The notes under the pieces were generated by a model. That model did no database searches, was not told where the DNA came from, and worked only from the letters and a program-made list of their open reading frames with translations. A stretch of DNA of 16,869 nucleotides from a virus: the IMG/VR virus record IMGVR_UViG_3300045988_062617, positions 1 through 16,869 of that record; one strand, given 5' to 3'. Every line of letters starts with the position of its first letter. The first letter of the stretch is position 1. This document shows, piece after piece, positions 724 through 16,869 of the stretch. Position numbers and translations under genes: made by a program.

Positions 724-729
724 CTACTA

Positions 730-791
730 GGGTGCGTGGTCGGCACGATTACAGTTTCAACACTGTACGCCCTTTAGCACCACTAAGGTGC
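730..791 (+). repeat. 62-nt structured intergenic element, copy 1 (three-way junction plus hairpin)
   Basis: 59/62 nt identical to 1331-1392. Predicted stems: P1 730-734/768-772, P2 735-738/744-747, P3 750-755/762-767, P4 777-781/787-791. All three substitutions between the copies fall in hairpin loops. Confidence 0.8.
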
Positions 792-1301: not shown

Positions 1302-1330
1302 GAATTCATAAAGTTAGTCAAAACTAACAA

Positions 1331-1392
1331 GGGTGCGTGGTTGGCACGATTACAGTTTCAACACTGTACGCCCTTTAGCACCAACAAGGTGC
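1331..1392 (+). repeat. 62-nt structured intergenic element, copy 2
   Basis: Same fold as copy 1: P1 1331-1335/1369-1373, P2 1336-1339/1345-1348 with loop GUUGG, P3 1351-1356/1363-1368 with loop UUCAAC, P4 1378-1382/1388-1392. It lies 43 nt upstream of the next start codon; copy 1 lies 41 nt upstream of its own. Confidence 0.8.
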
Positions 1393-1697: not shown

Positions 1698-1726
1698 TTG
1701 ACAATAATTACGGTATATGCTATTAT
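1698..1726 (+). promoter_or_regulatory. Early promoter P3 (sigma-A type, extended -10)
   Basis: TTGACA at 1698-1703 within ACTTGACAA, a 17-nt spacer, then TGcTATTAT with the -10 at 1721-1726. It begins five nt after the stop codon of the previous ORF. Confidence 0.7.
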
Positions 1727-1732
1727 ATAATT

Positions 1733-1928
1733 GTAGCAAGGGTATAAGCAAAAAAATCTTAGTTACGTTGCCATAGGTGGTGTAGACTCCCAACCCTCTA
1801 CATCACCTGCCCCCTTAGTAGGTGTAGTTTATTGGTAAAATGCGTGAATCTTAAATAAACAATATCATCGCTCATTCACGTGAAACAGGTTCAATACCTG
1901 TCACCTGCTCTAGTGCTTTATAGCACTA
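1733..1928 (+). ncRNA. Candidate structured non-coding RNA or long leader (possible prohead-RNA analogue)
   Basis: No credible ORF lies between P3 and the ATG at 1976. Predicted structure: a 12-13-bp hairpin (1774-1786/1797-1809) with the C-rich loop CUCCCAACCC; a three-way junction closed by 1817-1824/1902-1909 that encloses hairpins 1843-1849/1874-1880 and 1885-1890/1896-1901; and a terminal hairpin 1911-1917/1922-1928. The ends and the function are not established. Confidence 0.35.
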
Positions 1929-1975
1929 AACTATATCTTGACGTTTTAAAAAATAAAGAAAGAGAGGAAAAAAAC

Positions 1976-3359: not shown

Positions 3360-5331
3360 AAAGTACAGATATTTTATGTGCGACTTTGAAACAACTGTTT
3401 ACAAAGGACAAGAGTTCACAGAGGTATGGGCGTCTGCTTCGGTAGAACTATTCACAGAAGATGTACAAATATTTCACTCAATTGATGAACAATTTAATTA
3501 CTTTGTAAGTCAAGATTGTAATATCGTAGCATATTATCATAACTTAAAGTTTGATGGTTCATTCTGGTTATCATATTTGATGATAGATAAAGGATTCAAA
3601 CAGGCATACAGAAAAACAGGTGAAGCTATAAACGAGGTAGAGTGGTTACAGGAAAAATTTATGGAAAACAATTCCTTTAAATATAGTATATCAGATAAAG
3701 GAATGTGGTACACCATTATTATAAAAGTAAATAACCACTTTATTGAAATAAGGGATTCACTAAAGCTTTTACCATTTAGTGTTAAAAAAATTGGTGATAA
3801 TTTTGGTACAAAGCATAAAAAGCTTGATATGGAATACACAGGTTTTCGATATGCAGGGTGTGAGATAACAGACAGTGAAAAAGAATACATTGGTAATGAT
3901 GTTCTTGTTGTTAAAGAAGCACTTGAAATTATGTTCAACGAGGGTCACGATAAACTAACAATAGGTTCTTGTTGTTTGGAAGAATACAAAGAGATGTGTA
4001 AGAAATCACTCAAGAATCAGTTAGAGTACAAGGAAATGTTTCCAGATGTATATAATGTAAGTATTAACCCTACAGAATATACATACGAAAATGCCGGAGA
4101 TTATATAAGAAAATCATACCGAGGTGGTTGGTGTTATTTAGTAAAAGGAAAAGAGAACAAGATAAAAACAAATGGAACTACGGCTGACGTAAATTCTCTG
4201 TATCCATCTATGATGTCATCTGAATCTGGAAACAGGTATCCAGTTGGTAAGCCTTGCTTCTGGAAAGGAAACTATATTCCAGACGAAGCTATAGCCGATA
4301 ATAAGTATTATTTTGTTAGAGTTAAAACAAGATTTTATATCAAGAGAGATAAGTTACCATTTATCCAGATAAAAAGTTCTTACTTATATAAAGGTACAGA
4401 AGCACTGGAATCGTCAGATATTTATGACAGTAAAACAGATTCTTACTTTTCATTCTATAAAGATAAGGACGGTATATTAAGAGATACAAGGGTTGAATTA
4501 GTCTTGACAATGACAGATTATCAGTTATTGAAAGACCACTATGATTTAGTTGATTTTGAAATACTTGACGGTTGTTGGTTTTACGCCTTAACAGGTATCT
4601 TTGATGAATACATAGAAAAGTATAAACATCAGAAACTTGTTAGTAAAGGTGCGTTGCGTGAGTTGGCTAAACTTTTTCTTAATAATCTGTACGGAAAAAT
4701 GGCATCAAGTAAAGATTCATCATTCAAACTAGCGTATGTGAAAGATGATAAAACTATCGGGTTTTTACCAGTTACAGAATCAAACAAGAAACCTGGTTAT
4801 ATTCCTGTCGGTTCAGCTATCACAAGCTATGCTAGAAATTTTACTATCAGGGCGGCACAGGCGAATTATCATGGTGTAGATAACCCCGGTTTTATTTATG
4901 CAGATACAGACAGCATACACTGTGATTTACCACCAGAAGAAATAGTTGGAATCAAAGTACATGATAAAAACTTTTGTTGTTGGAAATTGGAATCATGTTG
5001 GGATAAAGCTATCTTTGCAAGACAGAAAACCTACATTGAGCACGTAGTTGCAGAGAATCTCGAACCAATAGAAGAACCATACAACAATATAAAGTGTGCA
5101 GGCATGCCAAAACGTTGTAAAGATTTATTTGAATTATCGTTGGCATGTGACGCAGATAAAAATAAAGAATGGAGTGATGAAGAAAAAGAATTTCTATTTG
5201 ACGAAGATAACAATCCTATTAAACGTGATTATAGTTCATTTAAAATAGGATTAAAAGTACCAGGAAAATTGAGACCAAAGAGGATACGTGGCGGTGTATT
5301 ACTCGTAGAAACGTCATATGAAATGAGGTAA
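3349..5331 (+). CDS. Protein-primed family-B DNA polymerase (phi29 gp2-like), 660 aa
   Basis: Motifs present: Exo I DFETT, Exo II YYHNLKFDGSF, Exo III YIGNDVLVV, motif A DVNSLYPSMM, motif B KLFLNNLYGKMA, motif C YADTDSIH, and KxY RQKTYIE. The track start is a TTG at 3349 that overlaps the TP stop codon. An ATG at 3376 (MCDFETT) is the alternative start. Confidence 0.95.
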   Translation: MKIKKYRYFMCDFETTVYKGQEFTEVWASASVELFTEDVQIFHSIDEQFNYFVSQDCNIVAYYHNLKFDGSFWLSYLMIDKGFKQAYRKTGEAINEVEWLQEKFMENNSFKYSISDKGMWYTIIIKVNNHFIEIRDSLKLLPFSVKKIGDNFGTKHKKLDMEYTGFRYAGCEITDSEKEYIGNDVLVVKEALEIMFNEGHDKLTIGSCCLEEYKEMCKKSLKNQLEYKEMFPDVYNVSINPTEYTYENAGDYIRKSYRGGWCYLVKGKENKIKTNGTTADVNSLYPSMMSSESGNRYPVGKPCFWKGNYIPDEAIADNKYYFVRVKTRFYIKRDKLPFIQIKSSYLYKGTEALESSDIYDSKTDSYFSFYKDKDGILRDTRVELVLTMTDYQLLKDHYDLVDFEILDGCWFYALTGIFDEYIEKYKHQKLVSKGALRELAKLFLNNLYGKMASSKDSSFKLAYVKDDKTIGFLPVTESNKKPGYIPVGSAITSYARNFTIRAAQANYHGVDNPGFIYADTDSIHCDLPPEEIVGIKVHDKNFCCWKLESCWDKAIFARQKTYIEHVVAENLEPIEEPYNNIKCAGMPKRCKDLFELSLACDADKNKEWSDEEKEFLFDEDNNPIKRDYSSFKIGLKVPGKLRPKRIRGGVLLVETSYEMR

Positions 5332-5634: not shown

Positions 5635-5676
5635 AAAACAGAGGGAGAACTAAGTTCTTACCCTCTGTTTTATTTA
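5635..5676. terminator. Bidirectional intrinsic terminator between the converging early operon and ATPase gene
   Basis: A 12-bp interrupted stem (5639-5650 pairing with 5654-5667, with a 2-nt bulge) and a UAA loop. It is flanked by AAAA at 5635-5638 and TTTTATTT at 5668-5675, so it can terminate transcription on both strands. Confidence 0.8.
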
Positions 5677-5792
5677 TATCTATAACCCATGTGTTAATCA
5701 TTGCGTTCAGCGAAAACGACAAGTAACACAGGCTCTATAATTTCAAGAGTGCTATCCTATGTACTCAATGTTAATCGCATGAGCAGATATAC

Positions 5793-6827
5793 CTAGTAAC
5801 TAAGTGCGCTTAATGTAGCTTCTTTACACCTTAAATCTTTAAACCTAAAGCATCCACGTTCAAATAGATACCTAAGATTATTCAAAAAGAAGTCATTACG
5901 TTTTAACATAACATAATTGATTTCGTGGTCGTCAGTAGTTACACTGATTTTTAAACCAAAAGTTCTATCTGGTCTGTCATCACAGTATAAGTATCCGTTT
6001 TCAGTAAATTCCCTTATACCAAACTCACACCCTTTATATTTAAGAGTGCAAAGGTATTTATTTTTTCCAGTAGGTCTTTCAATAAAACTCTGATTATCAT
6101 TCAAATAAACACATTCACTACTATATCCAACATAACTGTCTTTCTTAAAAGCTCGATTGAAACCGCTAGTTTTCTGCGCTTCACTTGCTGATTTATTAAA
6201 TCCCTGTTCTAATACAAACCCGTCACCGCGTAAAAATTTTATATCTTTATGTAGTCTAGCACTTATTTCCATTTTTGTATAATATGGGTTGATAATACTG
6301 ACAGGGTTCGAAATCATATAAACAGGTACATAACGAACCTGTTTACCCTGTCCTCTTGCAATAGACGTATGAATACTGATAAACTTTCTTACTTCATCAG
6401 GACAGTAGTGATTAGATTCACTTTGAAATTCATCAAATTCTAGCCTAGAAATATCAGCAAATAAATGGCTGTATTTTTTCAACTGGTCTGCACTGTTTAA
6501 ACTGATAGCATACCCACAGCTTTTTTCGTCTAAGAATAACTCATGGAAGATTCCACTCGCCCGTCTTTTTGAAGTCATGGTATGTCCTGTGAAGAACAGA
6601 TTACCTATATCTTTATAGAATTTATCTACCACATTATCAAGTTCATAATTATAACGGTAAATAAGTCCAAACTTTTCGCCTTTATCAAGAAATCTGTTTA
6701 TGCACAGCCTACTGAAATAGGTTGTTTTTCCTGCACTTCGGTTTGAAGTAACCATATAGATTTCTGGTTTGTTACCGTTGATATCTAACATTGACAATAA
6801 TTTAGTGCCGTCATAATATTTTGGCAT
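5793..6827 (-). CDS. DNA encapsidation (packaging) ATPase, phi29 gp16-like, 344 aa
   Basis: Walker A is SNRSAGKT and Walker B is RLEFDEF. The start at 6827 (MPKYYDG..) lies 9 nt after AAGGAG. The track start at 6881 would lie inside the promoter region. This is the only gene on the - strand. Confidence 0.9.
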   Translation of the reverse strand: MPKYYDGTKLLSMLDINGNKPEIYMVTSNRSAGKTTYFSRLCINRFLDKGEKFGLIYRYNYELDNVVDKFYKDIGNLFFTGHTMTSKRRASGIFHELFLDEKSCGYAISLNSADQLKKYSHLFADISRLEFDEFQSESNHYCPDEVRKFISIHTSIARGQGKQVRYVPVYMISNPVSIINPYYTKMEISARLHKDIKFLRGDGFVLEQGFNKSASEAQKTSGFNRAFKKDSYVGYSSECVYLNDNQSFIERPTGKNKYLCTLKYKGCEFGIREFTENGYLYCDDRPDRTFGLKISVTTDDHEINYVMLKRNDFFLNNLRYLFERGCFRFKDLRCKEATLSALSY

Positions 6828-6852
6828 ATCAAAAAACTCCTTTCCATACTTA

Positions 6853-6881
6853 ATTATAACACACCCATTGATTTTTCGCAA
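6853..6881 (-). promoter_or_regulatory. Promoter for the packaging ATPase gene
   Basis: On the - strand: TTGCGA (6881-6876), a 17-nt spacer, then TGtTATAAT with the -10 at 6858-6853. Confidence 0.6.
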
Positions 6882-7277: not shown

Positions 7278-8000
7278 ATGGGTGATATTAACAAAGCTGT
7301 TTCTTTCATGATTAACACAGCAAAGGACAATATTCATGGTTATGACCAACAGCACAGAAATGGCCCAGATTATGACTGTAGTTCACTGGTAGGGACAGCA
7401 TTATACTATGCAGGTTTCGCTGTTTCGCCATATTCATGGACTGGCAATTTAGAATCACAGTTAAGAAAAGCAGGGTTTGTAGATTGCAAAGCACCATGGA
7501 AAGCAGGTGACATTCATTTAAACAGAGGAAACCACGTATGTATGAGTATCAATGAAAGCCAGATAGTTGAAGCGTCAATTAACGAAAAAGGAACACCCAC
7601 AGGTGGTAAAACTGGTGACCAGACAGGTAAAGAAATTCAGATTACTTCCTATTATAATTATTATCTAGGATGGGATTTACACTTGAGATTTACTGGTGCA
7701 AACACAAACAACAATAAAGGCTATACTGTTAAAGAAATAGCCAGACAGGTTATTGAAGGTAAATGGGGTGTCGGTAACGAGAGAAAAAGACTCTTAGAAA
7801 AAGCAGGTTATAATTATGATGAAGTACAAAACTATGTAAATGAACTCTTTACAAAAGGTGGTTACAAGTCGAACGGTGAAGTTGCAAGAGAAGTTATCAA
7901 AGGTGTATGGGGTGTAGGAAAAGAAAGAAAAAACAGACTTGAAAAAGCAGGTTACAATTACGACGAGATTCAAAAACTCGTTAACCAGATGTTAGGATAA
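7278..8000 (+). CDS. Endolysin: N-terminal cysteine peptidoglycan hydrolase (Amidase_5 / NlpC-P60-like) plus two CW_7 cell-wall-binding repeats
   Basis: Putative catalytic residues are Cys34 (YDCSS) and His86 (GNHVCM), with a GDQTGKE motif. Two copies of the CW_7 signature are present: GKWGVGNERKRLLEKAGYNYDEVQNYVN at nt ~7722-7847 and GVWGVGKERKNRLEKAGYNYDEIQKLVN at nt ~7872-7994. Confidence 0.9.
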   Translation: MGDINKAVSFMINTAKDNIHGYDQQHRNGPDYDCSSLVGTALYYAGFAVSPYSWTGNLESQLRKAGFVDCKAPWKAGDIHLNRGNHVCMSINESQIVEASINEKGTPTGGKTGDQTGKEIQITSYYNYYLGWDLHLRFTGANTNNNKGYTVKEIARQVIEGKWGVGNERKRLLEKAGYNYDEVQNYVNELFTKGGYKSNGEVAREVIKGVWGVGKERKNRLEKAGYNYDEIQKLVNQMLG

Positions 8001-14141: not shown

Positions 14142-16775
14142 ATGTTTACAGATGTAGAAACACTTAGATACTGGACTTTAAAGGCGTTACCATTGGTTTA
14201 CGATGACTCACTTAGTTATATGGAAGTGCAGGGCAAAATTGTTAAAAAATTAAACGAGCTGATTAAGAACAATAATCAGTTGCCAGAACACATTAGAGAG
14301 CTTATTAAAACGTACATTTCCAGTGGTGAAATTGATAACATTATTGCTGAGATTTTAAGTGATTATATGCTTAGTGTTAAAAATCCACCAGAAAATTTGA
14401 AACCTGCTGTTGGTGATGGCTCAGCAGATGATACAGAAGCAATTCAGGGTTGTTTGGACTATGCCAAAGCCCACCATGGTATGTGCGTTTACTTCCCGAG
14501 TGGTGCTTATCTTACTAGCACAATAACACTTCCAGAAAATAGTGATGTTACTATGTTTGGTCAGGGAAGATATGTTACTAGACTGGTACTTAGAGGTGGC
14601 GCAACCGAAGCTATGTTAAAGGGTTCAGTAAAGAGTCTTACTTTAACAGGTTTGATGTTTGACGGAAACGGGGATATTCAGGTTAATAATGTTGACCTTA
14701 TCAAGTGTAATGTTGCTAACGCTAGTATTTCGCAGTGCATTCTTACAGATGGATTCAATTTGCTTGATGTTAACGCTAGTGGAAATGTACAGATTAGTCA
14801 TGTTATTTTTGACCATGCTATTGAAGAAAGTTTAATTATTCGTGGTACTGGTAACTCACATTGTGATAATATTACATTTAATACTATTTCAAGCCTAGTC
14901 GGAAAAGAATTTTTTACATTAGAATCTAATGATAATGTTGTTAAATGCAACTGCACAGGCGATGCTAGAAAACTGTTCACAGTTAGTGGCAACAGAAACT
15001 ACATTGAAGTAGATAACATTAGTGGTAACGTTGAAATACCTACCTTTAGTGATACTGGTGAACAGAATACAATTAAGATTAACAGAATTGCTATTAAGGA
15101 TAAAGTTAAAACTACTGATTTTTCAAGCGAAATAACTATTGTTAACTGTGGTGATGCTAATATTAACGGAAGTAGCAAGACAGAAGAATATACTGGTGAT
15201 GTTAGTTGTAGTGGCGTAAACAAGACAGAAGAATATACTGGTGATGTTAGTTGCAGTGGCGTAAACAAGACAGAAACATTTACTGGTGATGCTAGTTGCA
15301 GTGGTGTAAACAAGACAGAAACATTTACTGGTGACGAACAAAATAGATGTAATAATTACGAGCTTGATGCAAAAATGGTTACTATCGGTAGTGATAGAAC
15401 GCTAAATATTATAGAAAAAACAGAAAGCAAAACAGAAACGATTAACGGAAATTTAGTTAAAAATATTGACACATTAAACGAAACAATAACAGGAAATAGA
15501 ACTATAACTTGTAATGGAACAAATAAAGAAACTTATACGGGTAGTACAATAGAAAGAAGTAAAGATAAATCTGTTATCGCTGATACTATTGACGTGGATT
15601 CAAAGAATCCAATTAAATACAAAACACCTATACAGTCACCTACAACAGAATTTTTTGACTATGTGCCTATATTAGACAGAGATGGCAATGAAAGAAAAGT
15701 AATGGTTGAAAATGAAAAGACCAAACACCTTGCATCTACAACTGAAAGCTATGTTCTTATCATTGGTGATAGCTACGCCGGAGGATTTACCGCAGGTGGA
15801 GACGTTACTGGTTTTCCAAAACTTATGGCACAATACGCTGGATGGGTTGAAAATAAAACATACTGGCATGAAGAAACAGGTGGTGCAGGTTTTGGTAAAA
15901 AAGGTGGAGCAGACTTTACTAAAGACTTTAACCAGTTAACGACAGACGCTTATAATAGAATGAATGATGTCCAGAGATTGGGTATTAAGAAAATCCTGTA
16001 TGCAGGTGGATGGAACGATGCTGATGTATCGCAGTCTAATATTATGACAGGGATGAAGAACACATTTACTAATGCTCGGAAAAAATTCCCTAACGCTGAA
16101 ATCTATGTGGCTATGATTGGATGGAGTGTTGACTATAGTAAACGTGAAGAGATTATTACTAATGCACTTCCTGCTTATACTAGGTGTGGTAAATATGGAG
16201 CTAGATATATTACTAATTCAGAATATATTATGCACAACTATGGTGGTATCAGTAGATCCGATAATCAGCACCCTAACGAAGAGAACCAAGACTTAATAGC
16301 TACCTATCTTTTAAGCGGGATTTTACATGGTAATTGTGATGTACAGTATAGGCAACGTGTTCCATTCCATATTAACGAAAAAGCTGTTTCAAAAATTAGT
16401 AGCTTAGGTGTAATGAGCTTATCGAATGATGTTACATCATGGAACATTGGACGTATAACTATTGACTTTAATTATAATAATAAAATTAGTGGTGGTAGTA
16501 TTGTTCAGGTTGCTACAGTTGATGAAAATTGCTTGATACTTGGTGGTCCGTTAGGGTCTAATAAATTTAGTGCCTCAGTTAATGGATATATGCAAGACGA
16601 GTCAGGTGGAACTAAATTCTATGATTTTAACGGCGTTATTTCTATTGACGCAGGACATGTCAACTTGTCATTTGACAAGATTAACGGTACCAATAATGGG
16701 TATCAAAATTTTGACAGGCCTTATCAGGCTAACATTGATGTAGCTACGATTACTACGGCTAGTATAGAGTGCTAG
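14142..16775 (+). CDS. Tail appendage / receptor-binding protein: N-terminal anchor, pectate-lyase-like beta-helix, 15-aa repeat shaft, SGNH/GDSL hydrolase domain and C-terminal domain (877 aa)
   Basis: It occupies the phi29 gp12 position. GDGSADDTEAIQGCLDYAKAHHGMCVYFPSGAYL is a pectate_lyase_3-type beta-helix signature. The SGNH blocks are IIGDSYAGG (G542 D543 S544, nt 15765-15773), YAGGWNDA and DNQHPN (D707/H710, nt 16260-16271). Confidence 0.85.
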   Translation: MFTDVETLRYWTLKALPLVYDDSLSYMEVQGKIVKKLNELIKNNNQLPEHIRELIKTYISSGEIDNIIAEILSDYMLSVKNPPENLKPAVGDGSADDTEAIQGCLDYAKAHHGMCVYFPSGAYLTSTITLPENSDVTMFGQGRYVTRLVLRGGATEAMLKGSVKSLTLTGLMFDGNGDIQVNNVDLIKCNVANASISQCILTDGFNLLDVNASGNVQISHVIFDHAIEESLIIRGTGNSHCDNITFNTISSLVGKEFFTLESNDNVVKCNCTGDARKLFTVSGNRNYIEVDNISGNVEIPTFSDTGEQNTIKINRIAIKDKVKTTDFSSEITIVNCGDANINGSSKTEEYTGDVSCSGVNKTEEYTGDVSCSGVNKTETFTGDASCSGVNKTETFTGDEQNRCNNYELDAKMVTIGSDRTLNIIEKTESKTETINGNLVKNIDTLNETITGNRTITCNGTNKETYTGSTIERSKDKSVIADTIDVDSKNPIKYKTPIQSPTTEFFDYVPILDRDGNERKVMVENEKTKHLASTTESYVLIIGDSYAGGFTAGGDVTGFPKLMAQYAGWVENKTYWHEETGGAGFGKKGGADFTKDFNQLTTDAYNRMNDVQRLGIKKILYAGGWNDADVSQSNIMTGMKNTFTNARKKFPNAEIYVAMIGWSVDYSKREEIITNALPAYTRCGKYGARYITNSEYIMHNYGGISRSDNQHPNEENQDLIATYLLSGILHGNCDVQYRQRVPFHINEKAVSKISSLGVMSLSNDVTSWNIGRITIDFNYNNKISGGSIVQVATVDENCLILGGPLGSNKFSASVNGYMQDESGGTKFYDFNGVISIDAGHVNLSFDKINGTNNGYQNFDRPYQANIDVATITTASIEC
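15177..15335 (+). repeat. In-frame 45-bp tandem repeat, about 3.5 copies, inside the appendage gene
   Basis: The units are 15177-15221, 15222-15266, 15267-15311 and a partial unit at 15312-15335. They encode KTEEYTGDVSCSGVN (twice), KTETFTGDASCSGVN and KTETFTGD. Copies 1 and 2 differ by one synonymous nucleotide (TGT/TGC). Confidence 0.9.
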
Positions 16776-16785
16776 TGTAATGGTG

Positions 16786-16827
16786 AGCAGGTTTGTATGC
16801 AGATAAATGCATATGAGCCTGCTTTTT
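16786..16827 (+). terminator. Late-operon intrinsic terminator
   Basis: A composite hairpin in which AGCAGG (16786-16791) pairs with CCTGCT (16818-16823). An inner TATGCA/TGCATA stem lies within it, and TTTTT follows at 16823-16827. It starts 11 nt after the appendage stop codon and ends just inside the right ITR. Confidence 0.75.
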
Positions 16828-16842
16828 AGTGTACATATGAAA

Positions 16843-16869
16843 AGGGGGTTTGAAATTTAATGGGGCAAA
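16843..16869. repeat. Right inverted terminal repeat (ITR), 27 bp
   Basis: AGGGGGTTTGAAATTTAATGGGGCAAA is the reverse complement of nt 1-27. Confidence 0.9.

Follow-up and report, generated by a model that had tools for sequence, protein, structure and literature searches.

The viral DNA recorded in IMG/VR as IMGVR_UViG_3300045988_062617, analysed here as one stretch of 16,869 nucleotides (hereafter the window), carries a strong promoter at 1698-1726 that fires into a region where no credible gene starts before position 1976, and the question raised by this locus is what the RNA in between is for. A preliminary description of 1698-1975 had offered two answers, a prohead RNA serving the phage packaging motor, or an autoregulatory leader of the downstream p6-like and single-stranded DNA-binding protein (SSB) genes. 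According to our analysis, the region 1733-1975 is a functional, conserved and structured RNA that leads the p6-like, SSB and replication genes, and it represents the leader of the second early transcription unit in a complete 16.9-kb phi29-like gut phage. At its centre, positions 1818-1909 form a tRNA-like element which is not a functional member of the tRNA family, as the features of an anticodon arm are missing from it, and smaller versions of the same module stand between other early genes. We see an even chance that these modules are RNase P/RNase Z processing signals yielding early messenger RNAs (mRNAs) capped by a hairpin.

The large tRNA-like element, referred to as TLS3, lies on the plus strand and is matched end to end by the Rfam model RF00005 at 45.4 bits, where the gathering score is 29; the match contains a 24-nt insertion in the place of the anticodon loop. 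In the window ARAGORN likewise calls a 93-nt 'tRNA-Leu(taa)' at 1818-1910. The acceptor stem of 7 bp (1818-1824/1902-1908) is followed by U8-A9 at 1825-1826 and by a D arm of 4 bp (1827-1830/1838-1841), whose loop AUUGGUA gives A14, G18-G19 and A21. On the 3′ side, a variable region of 4 nt (1881-1884) leads to a T arm of 5 bp (1885-1889/1897-1901), with G53, T54, T55, C56, A58 and C61 given by the arm and its 7-nt loop UUCAAUA, and to the discriminator U1909, behind which no CCA is encoded. All the nucleotides engaged in tRNA tertiary interactions (U8, A14, G18-G19, A21, G53-T54-T55-C56, A58 and C61) are in place. In the position of the anticodon arm there is a long arm of 7-8 bp (1843-1849/1874-1880) with a 24-nt loop (1850-1873), and a 5-bp stem with a 7-nt loop cannot be drawn. 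The preliminary description had presented this fold as a three-way junction; its closing helix (now placed at 1818-1824/1902-1908) and its arms stand, but the D arm had been missed and the topology is that of a four-way tRNA cloverleaf. No tmRNA was found by ARAGORN in the window, and the alanine identity pair G3-U70 is absent, position 3-70 being A-U in the window and freely varying in relatives. One nucleotide after the discriminator begins a trailing hairpin, UAGUGCU-UUAU-AGCACUA (1911-1928, plus strand, z = -3.84), with no U-run behind it, which confirms the terminal 7-bp hairpin noted earlier.

The conservation of these structures could be followed in a considerable number of genomes. Among GenBank phages the only close relative is an unannotated human-faecal contig, MT835814.1 (hereafter L001), while IMG/VR holds well over a hundred relatives, almost throughout from human gut samples. 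The closest cultured phage is Clostridium phage CI55P2, which has a gut Clostridium_AQ host and a connector 42% identical to that of the window. For the comparison of leaders, the region upstream of the orthologous gene was taken from 80 IMG/VR relatives and L001, and modules were counted by hand-written criteria in the window, L001 and 80 early-region loci, 430 kb in all. A pattern search with AGTTACGTTGCCANAG in viral contigs returned mostly chance matches in unrelated contigs and added little to this protein-anchored harvest. Both the strict census and the parse across subtypes demanded paired helices, near-complete pairing in the case of the parse, so that their percentages of pairing are partly built in; the more telling test is therefore the sequence-only alignment of subtype A, to which the window belongs (alignment A3), and unbiased support comes from this alignment together with mini modules harvested with no pairing demanded of their acceptor and T helices, and with strand and shuffle controls.

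In the sequence-only MAFFT alignment of subtype A (n = 15), six helices, namely the leader hairpin P1, the acceptor, the D arm, the long arm, the T arm and the trailing hairpin, are 94-100% paired and five of them show compensatory changes, compared with 34-44% pairing in slid-register controls. The helices of TLS3 itself are 100% paired, with compensatory changes in the acceptor, the long arm and the T arm; the trailing hairpin is 96.7% paired with two compensatory pairs, and P1 93.8% paired, also with two. In the minihelix formed by acceptor and T arm, 11 of 12 pairs are compensatory across 30 distinct syntenic sequences, and double-change cells number 109, against 30 +/- 4 in shuffles; with the register slid, pairing is about 40%. 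Structural selection on this minihelix is strong. The whole of 1735-1975 folds with z = -3.58, a value equalled by none of 200 shuffles, and the roughly 240 nt of highly structured non-coding RNA described behind the promoter are thereby corroborated. Poor conservation or helices without covariation, either of which would have spoken against a functional RNA, are not what the relatives present, as the structure is kept in them by compensatory changes.

What lies between the acceptor 5′ strand and the T arm behaves quite differently. This segment can be as short as 14 nt or as long as about 130 nt, and what one subtype has there is unrelated to what another has: subtype A carries the D arm and the arm with the 24-nt loop, subtype B a D arm and a bent arm of 6+8 bp, other subtypes hold insertions of 85-130 nt with two extra hairpins, and the smallest versions have just 14-20 nt. 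A GG is found in the D-loop zone of 53 of the 65 large modules. The tRNA detectors give inconsistent results. ARAGORN calls just nine of the 80 orthologous elements, as Leu-taa, Phe-aaa, Glu-ttc, Lys-ttt or, in two cases, undetermined, and its anticodon flips between Leu and Phe in near-identical orthologues; the RF00005 gathering score is reached in six of 20 representative relatives, and L001 is unmatched. A variable middle and inconsistent anticodons, combined with a covarying minihelix, point to a mimic of tRNA without a decoding role.

A true tRNA that decodes, Leu-UAA in the ARAGORN call or Lys-CUU after removal of a short intron, with an unusual or intron-bearing anticodon arm, is accordingly very improbable and can be taken as largely refuted. 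Such a reading could draw on the calls of both tRNA detectors, on the canonical acceptor, D and T arms and tertiary nucleotides, and on a 2024 review of phi29-like phages which states that some metagenomic clusters are 'predicted to encode tRNAs' and says no more of them (PMC11476376). It has to face a stem of 7-8 bp with a 24-nt loop where 5 bp and 7 nt would be needed, an anticodon that differs among near-identical orthologues, and the replacement of the arm by unrelated structures, or its loss, in other subtypes. For the intron version, we know of no machinery in bacteria that would remove short tRNA introns. Compared with canonical tRNAs (RF00005), the modules share the acceptor, D and T arms, the elbow nucleotides and the 12-bp acceptor/T stack, and the window copy scores above threshold, but the 5-bp/7-nt anticodon stem-loop, a conserved anticodon and an encoded CCA are all missing and most relatives fall below the detector thresholds. 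There is a practical warning for annotation in this, as detectors label some of these modules wrongly as Leu, Phe, Glu or Lys tRNAs.

In relation to the variable middle, one palindrome, TGTTTCACGTGAAACA, was seen to recur in two unrelated RNA contexts of a single subclade. It substitutes for the 'anticodon arm' of the tRNA-like element in L056, L061, L063-L065, L070, L072, L075 and L079-L081, and it forms a hairpin between the gp16 stop codon and a second structured RNA, the pRNA-like RNA discussed below, in L242, L246 and L248-L250. A mobile hairpin is one possibility, a binding site for a protein another.

Furthermore, TLS3 is not the only module of its kind in the window. Two 62-nt repeats, lying in 726-821 and 1327-1422 and 83% identical, had been set aside in the preliminary description as a further candidate for a packaging RNA; they turned out to be two additional, minimal copies of the tRNA-like module. 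The first, TLS1 (729-791, plus strand, z = -2.6), follows the stop codon of ORF 490-723 at a distance of 5 nt, and the gene downstream of it is a p6-like paralogue with its ATG at 833. The module consists of an acceptor-like helix (729-734/768-773), a D-like hairpin CGUG-GUCGG-CACG, a T-like arm UACAGU-UUCAAC-ACUGUA, discriminator U774 and a trailing hairpin at 777-791. The second, TLS2 (1330-1392, plus strand, z = -2.5), is 83% identical to TLS1, has its trailing hairpin at 1378-1392 and precedes ORF 1436-1693. The mini fold is thus made of a 6-bp closing helix, a 4-bp hairpin with the loop GUYGG, a 6-bp T-like arm with the loop UUCAAC and a discriminator, with the trailing hairpin two nucleotides behind it in both copies. 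As the T-like arm stacks directly on the closing helix, the stack amounts to 6+6 = 12 bp, equal to the 7+5 stack of tRNA. From the relatives, 28 distinct mini modules were collected with no other anchors than the small hairpin with its GG and the spacing to the T loop. In both the acceptor (95.8% paired) and the T stem (98.8% paired) of these, compensatory changes affect four of the six pairs, and GG, the counterpart of G18-G19, is retained in the small hairpin loop of 27 of the 28. Since the GG that docks on the T loop is kept, the minimal version retains what the tRNA elbow needs.

The three modules of the window (729-791, 1330-1392 and 1818-1928), and likewise three in L001, belong to a clearly oriented family. 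The census returned 118 modules on the coding strand, 18 on the opposite strand and 3.6 in shuffles; for modules with a trailing hairpin the figures are 103, 2 and 0.4. Modules are restricted to early genes, 111 of the 118 are intergenic, and from the module end to the next start codon there is a median of 62 nt (interquartile range 54-68). Mini modules stand directly behind a stop codon and have no promoter, while the large ones stand behind a promoter and a leader, a consensus-like promoter being found at most 160 nt upstream in 54 of the 118 modules, namely the large ones. Of 116 modules, 101 have a trailing hairpin that sets in 0-3 nt past the discriminator, and none of these 101 hairpins is followed by a U-run, so they are not intrinsic terminators or attenuators. 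Among 111 distinct modules there is not one that encodes CCA, a U occupies position -1 in 61%, and the acceptor sequence and the discriminator vary freely. No such modules were found in phi29, CI55P2 or CI644P3, and no cultured carrier is known here; this indicates a clade-specific feature and also that the scanner is not prone to false positives. Close relatives can differ in the number and placement of modules, as L007, a subtype A genome, has an additional large tRNA-like module at 2695-2786, downstream of its p6-like gene.

The high variability of the middles, and the degenerate look of some versions such as subtype E with its T loop UGCAAUU, might also be expected of decaying tRNA-gene remnants or of a selfish repeat without function. 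We find this highly improbable, as compensatory substitutions keep the helices paired across deep divergence and neither the strict strand bias nor the intergenic placement and the coupled hairpin fit with decay.

Promoter-proximal modules are preceded by a leader, the parts of which follow the same order in all 80 relatives and L001: promoter, P0 helix, the motif GUUACGUU(U)GCCA, P1 hairpin and C-rich tail, and then the acceptor 5′ strand, the middle, the T arm GGTTCRAnnCC, the acceptor 3′ strand, the discriminator and the trailing hairpin, behind which come an A-rich spacer and the ribosome-binding site (RBS). The early promoter of the window (1698-1726, plus strand) is as strong as had been described, with -35 TTGACA at 1698-1703, a 17-nt spacer and an extended -10 TGnTATTAT at 1718-1726, in which the hexamer TATTAT occupies 1721-1726 behind the TG; it matches the consensus at 11 of 12 positions and is among the three best sigma-70-type sites of the window. 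P0 (1733-1766, z = -1.1, weak when taken alone) is formed by GUAGC at 1733-1737 and GUUAC at 1762-1766. Read directly across subtypes, its pairs GUAGC/GUUAC, GUAAC/GUUAC and GUAAU/AUUAC show a compensatory pattern, and it is on this direct reading that P0 is based, as the formal count failed through a 1-nt shift in the MAFFT alignment (GTTGCC versus GTTTGCC). Between P0 and P1 lies the conserved single-stranded motif AGUUACGUU(U)GCCA (1761-1773), identical in the window and L001, nearly invariant in subtype A and found in several subtypes.

P1 (1774-1809, z = -4.95) corresponds to the 12-13-bp hairpin of the preliminary description and has 13 bp (1774-1786/1797-1809) around the loop CUCCCAACCC. 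Each of the 43 distinct promoter-proximal leaders has this hairpin, whose stem occurs in 15 different sequences and which ends 5-9 nt ahead of the tRNA-like element. In the window this gap is filled by the single-stranded C-rich tail CCCCCUUA (1810-1817), which occupies positions -8 to -1 of the element; CCC occurs in the tail of 41 of the 43 leaders, and other tails read ACCCCUCU, CACCUCCA or CCUCC. Positions -8 to -3 are 64% C in large modules and 59% A in mini modules, and in pre-tRNA leaders these positions are touched by the RNase P protein (PMC11143913). A role of the tail as an anti-Shine-Dalgarno sequence in cis was considered; judged by eye, the complementarity is weak (CCUU/GAGG in type A) and does not track the RBS, and such a role is no more than possible. 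The leader is altogether the least explained part of the finding.

Two further interactions had been proposed in this part of the RNA. The complementarity between CCAA in the P1 loop and UUGG at 1833-1836 does exist in the window but is not kept up in relatives: CCAAU/AUUGG is found in six of the 15 subtype A sequences and in none of subtype B, and where the D loop has changed to AAUAG the P1 loop shows no compensating change. The UUGG concerned is the GG motif of the D loop. Similarly, the duplicated words TAGGTG (1774, 1819) and CACCTGC (1804, 1902) are present as stated, but the alternative pairings they permit are limited to the window's own subtype, subtype B offering just 4 bp, and a conserved switch based on them was rejected. 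A scan for promoters and terminators also brought up a terminator-like hairpin at 1804-1824, CACCUGC-CCCCUUA-GUAGGUG followed by UAGUUUAUUG, which combines the P1 3′ strand with the acceptor 5′ strand and would compete with both. Being limited to subtype A it is probably incidental, and terminator-like matches in the window occur at chance frequency (7 found, 8.0 expected).

Downstream, an A-rich spacer with the RBS GAGAGG (1962-1967) and the ATG (1976-1978) occupies 1929-1978 and leads into the p6-like gene 1976-2314. The ATG at 1976 is the first credible start, as had been supposed, with all homologues beginning at MARVPMVTRT, and the GTG-initiated ORF 1880-2314 is merely an in-frame upstream extension of the same gene. 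This gene and its paralogue 833-1132 both match phrog_6370, 'dsDNA binding protein', which makes the label 'p6-like' reasonable. The two paralogues are about 42% identical and each has a tRNA-like module ahead of it, and the same pair is found in L001.

An uncleaved leader acting in cis, which would control elongation or translation of the p6-like, SSB and replication genes by binding, for example, a protein or the ribosome, would account for the position of the RNA directly downstream of a strong promoter and upstream of replication genes, for the conservation of the leader motif, P1 and the anti-Shine-Dalgarno-like C-rich tail, and for the fact that two of the three modules in the window precede p6-like paralogues. 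Yet the module also precedes the unrelated gene 1436-1693 and occurs without promoter or leader, the C-rich tail is by eye poorly complementary to its own RBS, and the terminator-like alternative hairpin at 1804-1824 is confined to subtype A, such matches being no commoner than in shuffles. In addition, p6-type proteins bind double-stranded DNA, not RNA. We therefore hold an uncleaved leader to be quite unlikely. As for the autoregulatory leader proposed earlier, feedback by the encoded protein is not indicated, and a module also stands before an unrelated gene for 85 amino acids, while a role in cis in the expression of what lies downstream is most likely.

In regard to the mechanism that could lie behind these modules, transcription from the strong promoter would start near G1733, and the first 85 nt would constitute the leader with P0, the GUUACGUUGCCA motif, P1 and the C-rich tail. 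Host tRNA-processing enzymes would take the modules for pre-tRNAs: RNase P would cut on the 5′ side, before G1818, and RNase Z after discriminator U1909, as it does with CCA-less tRNA precursors in Firmicutes. Early transcripts would in this way be split into an 85-nt leader RNA, a tRNA-like RNA of about 92 nt, which could gain a CCA tail, and downstream mRNAs. The cut at 1817/1818 would leave the C-rich tail as the 3′ end of the 85-nt RNA, while the downstream mRNA would start 0-3 nt before a stable hairpin, with a strong RBS about 40 nt further on, and could live longer as a result. Such an arrangement shields mRNAs of Gram-positive bacteria from decay that depends on the 5′ end, and in Bacillus 5′-proximal stem-loops and RBSs stabilise mRNA against RNase J1 and RNase Y. 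The tRNA features recognised by RNase P, RNase Z and the CCA-adding enzyme are the 12-bp acceptor/T stack, the T loop and the GG partner of that loop. With precisely the recognised parts conserved, the decoding parts dispensable, and the modules biased to the coding strand and placed between cistrons, punctuation of the early transcripts is the most economical reading, and the absent CCA, the U at position -1 and the hairpin right after the discriminator lead to the same conclusion.

Several points nevertheless weigh against punctuation. We infer the cleavages, the enzymes involved and the effect on stability, and the host only from a distant cultured relative infecting gut Clostridium_AQ. An RNase P cut at TLS1 would leave the upstream mRNA ending 5 nt past its stop codon without a protective structure, a seemingly high price unless such a design serves differential decay or efficient cutting is limited to the 3′ side. 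With P0 the primary transcript has a helix at its start in any case, so a stabilising hairpin alone cannot explain the promoter-proximal module, and simple punctuation does not explain the conserved leader with its GUUACGUUGCCA motif, P1 and C-rich tail. The base right after the discriminator is commonly C, as in U-CUA of the window, and Bacillus RNase Z is not considered to work optimally with C74. Finally, the 24-nt loop is well conserved in subtype A, with both of its ends (AUCUUAAAUA...UCAUCGCUCAUU) nearly invariant and its centre variable, which suggests a subtype-specific interaction outside the punctuation model.

The main rival reading is that the excised RNA, whether the tRNA-like part or the leader, is itself the product. 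The modules would then be abundant early mimics of the tRNA acceptor, T arm and elbow, possibly CCA-tailed, which processing merely releases to titrate or mislead, in trans, a host factor with affinity for the upper tRNA half. Among the factors that could be targeted are a toxin of tRNA-directed defence, enzymes that add CCA or modify tRNA, EF-Tu and T-box leaders. Conservation limited to those parts of tRNA that such factors recognise, the presence of three copies in a 17-kb genome with one of them behind a near-consensus promoter, and the restriction to early genes all agree with this possibility, and phage tRNAs are known to serve as counter-measures to tRNA-cleaving defences. However, known defences directed at tRNA mostly act on anticodon loops, which these elements lack, the acceptor and discriminator vary freely, so that no identity set for a synthetase or toxin is conserved, and the fixed trailing hairpin and constant distance to the next RBS point to a role in cis. 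A trans-acting mimic is on this evidence possible but unlikely. Punctuation and a functional excised product are not mutually exclusive. A broader and more doubtful proposal is that the tRNA shape serves as a portable expression cassette, whose excised, CCA-tailed 'top-half' mimics act in trans early in infection together with the 85-nt leader RNA from the promoter-proximal copy, whose 3′ end would expose the anti-Shine-Dalgarno-like C-rich tail; products of this kind could be decoys for tRNA-directed defence or surveillance enzymes, or a C-rich repressor of host translation initiation.

The closest known system to the phage modules is that of the plant-mitochondrial t-elements. These are tRNA-like structures with non-canonical cloverleaves, found through the sequence GGTTCRANYCC, which lie at the 5′ or 3′ ends of mRNAs, where RNase Z and RNase P cut them (PMC1920247); they are CCA-tailed and not aminoacylated (bioRxiv 10.1101/2024.09.09.612099). 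Both systems have in common the non-canonical cloverleaf, the GGTTCRANYCC T arm, the location within mRNA precursors beside coding regions and the lack of a decoding role, whereas cutting by RNase P and RNase Z, CCA tailing and the absence of aminoacylation, established in plants, are for the phage predictions only. The phage modules differ in their location in early operons of phi29-like gut phages, three per 17 kb, in the trailing hairpin tied to each of them, with a constant spacing to the RBS that follows, and in their size, being minimal (about 45 nt) or expanded (about 90-160 nt), with a conserved 85-nt leader added to the promoter-proximal ones. Animal mitochondria and bacterial tRNA-mRNA co-transcripts likewise have a tRNA shape between cistrons, with mRNA ends defined by RNase P and RNase Z, but use real decoding tRNAs for this punctuation, while the phage modules are mimics without an anticodon arm. 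More generally, tRNA-like signals for mRNA processing are known from plant and animal mitochondria and from a few eukaryotic long non-coding RNAs.

Among viruses, RNase P is known to process phage M3 RNA and the C4 RNA precursor, besides polycistronic mRNAs (PMC11143913). The M3 RNA of phi80, the C4 antisense precursor of P1 and P7 and the tRNA-like structure that turnip yellow mosaic virus (TYMV) carries also present an acceptor/T-like helix of viral origin to host RNase P (PMC11143913), yet they are single elements with other roles, such as antisense release or formation of the 3′ end of an RNA genome, in contrast to modules repeated between cistrons of the early operon in a double-stranded DNA phage. 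No report of repeated tRNA-like intercistronic modules in a bacteriophage was found in the searchable literature. Provided that RNase P and RNase Z do cut the modules, host tRNA enzymes would be the means by which the smallest tailed phages shape their early transcriptome, and the versions of about 45 nt, reduced to a minimum by nature, would define what these enzymes need in a Gram-positive gut host; as short processing elements, the mini modules might also find use in synthetic operons. Should the products act in trans, the phage would hold both a counterpart of mitochondrial tRNA punctuation and a new class of phage small RNAs.

It remains to consider the prohead (packaging) RNA (pRNA). The window encodes a phi29-type SSB, a protein-primed family-B DNA polymerase, a tail knob, a connector, a phi29-type major capsid protein and the gp16 packaging ATPase (minus strand, 5793-6881), and the presence of a phi29-type connector and gp16 ATPase, along with the structure, conservation and strong promoter of the RNA, speaks for a pRNA in the region 1733-1930. 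We regard this assignment as hardly credible. A search with RF00044 gave no match at E <= 10 anywhere in the window; the long bulged A-helix and the three-way junction of C/E and D arms, expected of a pRNA of about 117-120 nt, are replaced by a four-way cloverleaf, with the 85-nt leader outside the closing helix; the module is not a single gene, having three copies in the window as in L001; and its loop-loop pair does not covary. All that the region shares with phi29 pRNA is that it is a structured non-coding RNA of a phi29-like phage behind a strong early promoter, while the topology, copy number and loop-loop covariation in which it differs are matched by another RNA, at 5675-5792 on the minus strand. 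That no other candidate apart from the 62-nt repeats was visible in this genome, as was stated in the preliminary description, is incorrect, as a separate single-copy RNA, directly 3′ of the gp16 gene, bears every architectural hallmark of a pRNA.

This pRNA-like RNA comprises the 117 nt after the stop codon of gp16 (z = -4.89). A long, bulged A-helix between its 5′ and 3′ ends closes a three-way junction, from which lead the C helix with the E hairpin, separated by the 6-nt bulge AUAGCA, and, beyond a UGU junction, the D hairpin with the loop UUCGCUG. On the minus strand, the RNA ends in a bidirectional intrinsic terminator at 5635-5671 that also closes the replication operon of the plus strand, and a terminator follows the element in all relatives. 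Every one of the 80 gp16 relatives, to as low as 67% protein identity, has the RNA at this position, with invariant ends GGUAUCU...AGAUAUA, and in an alignment of 30 sequences 33 of 43 pairs are compensatory. The kissing pair between bulge UAGC and D-loop GCUG, treated as a pseudoknot, is 95.8% paired and compensatory at all four positions. Complementarity of at least 4 bp between bulge and D loop is present in 62 of 63 distinct sequences in nine versions: UAGC/GCUG, UAGCA/UGCUA, AAGC/GCUU, ACGC/GCGU, AAACA/UGUUU, UUGCA/UGCAG, GUGGAA/UUCCGU, CUGUA/UACAG and AUAGCAC/GUGCUAU. A covariance model of this RNA (R1) gives a single match for each of two genomes, at 112 bits for the window and at 102 bits for L001.

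Domain I of phi29 pRNA, taken from the phi29 record, has the same minimum-energy topology as the 5675-5792 RNA, and its AACC (45-48) and GGUU (82-85) correspond to UAGC (40-43) and GCUG (83-86) here. R1 does not find phi29 pRNA, and RF00044 misses the 5675-5792 RNA even in a search of 251 nt; as neither model finds the RNA of the other, the likeness is architectural and homology to Bacillus pRNA is not demonstrable. The RNA at 5675-5792 is probably the real prohead RNA of this genome, in a new genomic position. In CI55P2 (L255, OP172760.1), the spacer between the DNA polymerase and packaging ATPase genes, at about 4700-4820 on the plus strand, also folds into a pRNA-like topology, with bulge UACCA complementary to D-loop UGGUA and a hairpin behind. 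R1 scores this candidate at just 11.9 bits (E = 3), and its assignment is based on position, fold and the UACCA/UGGUA pair. As a cultured phage, CI55P2 gives experimental access to the pRNA-like family. The basic N-terminal segment of the phi29 connector (MARKRS) binds pRNA, and the connectors of the window (MGRRKH) and of CI55P2 (MSSKRRK) have basic N-termini as well, which, together with the fold in CI55P2, fits an RNA-dependent packaging motor. To our knowledge, RNA-dependent packaging has been regarded as unique to Bacillus phages, and a pRNA-like RNA in a large uncultured clade of gut phages and in CI55P2 suggests that it extends well beyond them. Dozens of naturally occurring variants of the pRNA three-way junction become available with this family, and the side result as a whole may matter as much as the tRNA-like modules.

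The genome ends in inverted terminal repeats of 48 nt, at 1-48 and 16822-16869 (TTTGCCCCATTAAATTTCAAACCCCC...), 79% complementary overall, and their presence at both ends identifies the window as a complete linear phage genome of 16,869 bp. They are far longer than the 6-nt AAAGTA repeat of phi29 and unrelated to it. Next to the left repeat, a promoter cassette with a perfect consensus (TTGACA-17-TATAAT plus GGTACAAAGAAAGGA) is duplicated in tandem at 59-133 and 152-226; only the second copy is followed by an ORF (212-478), while the first drives an A-rich RNA of about 90 nt. Other repeats were seen within genes, namely tandem 45-nt repeats (15 codons) at 15149-15328 in the tail gene for 877 amino acids (14142-16775), where three overlapping 90-nt copies are 77-83% identical, and an internal duplication, 7734-7831/7878-7975, inside ORF 7278-8000.

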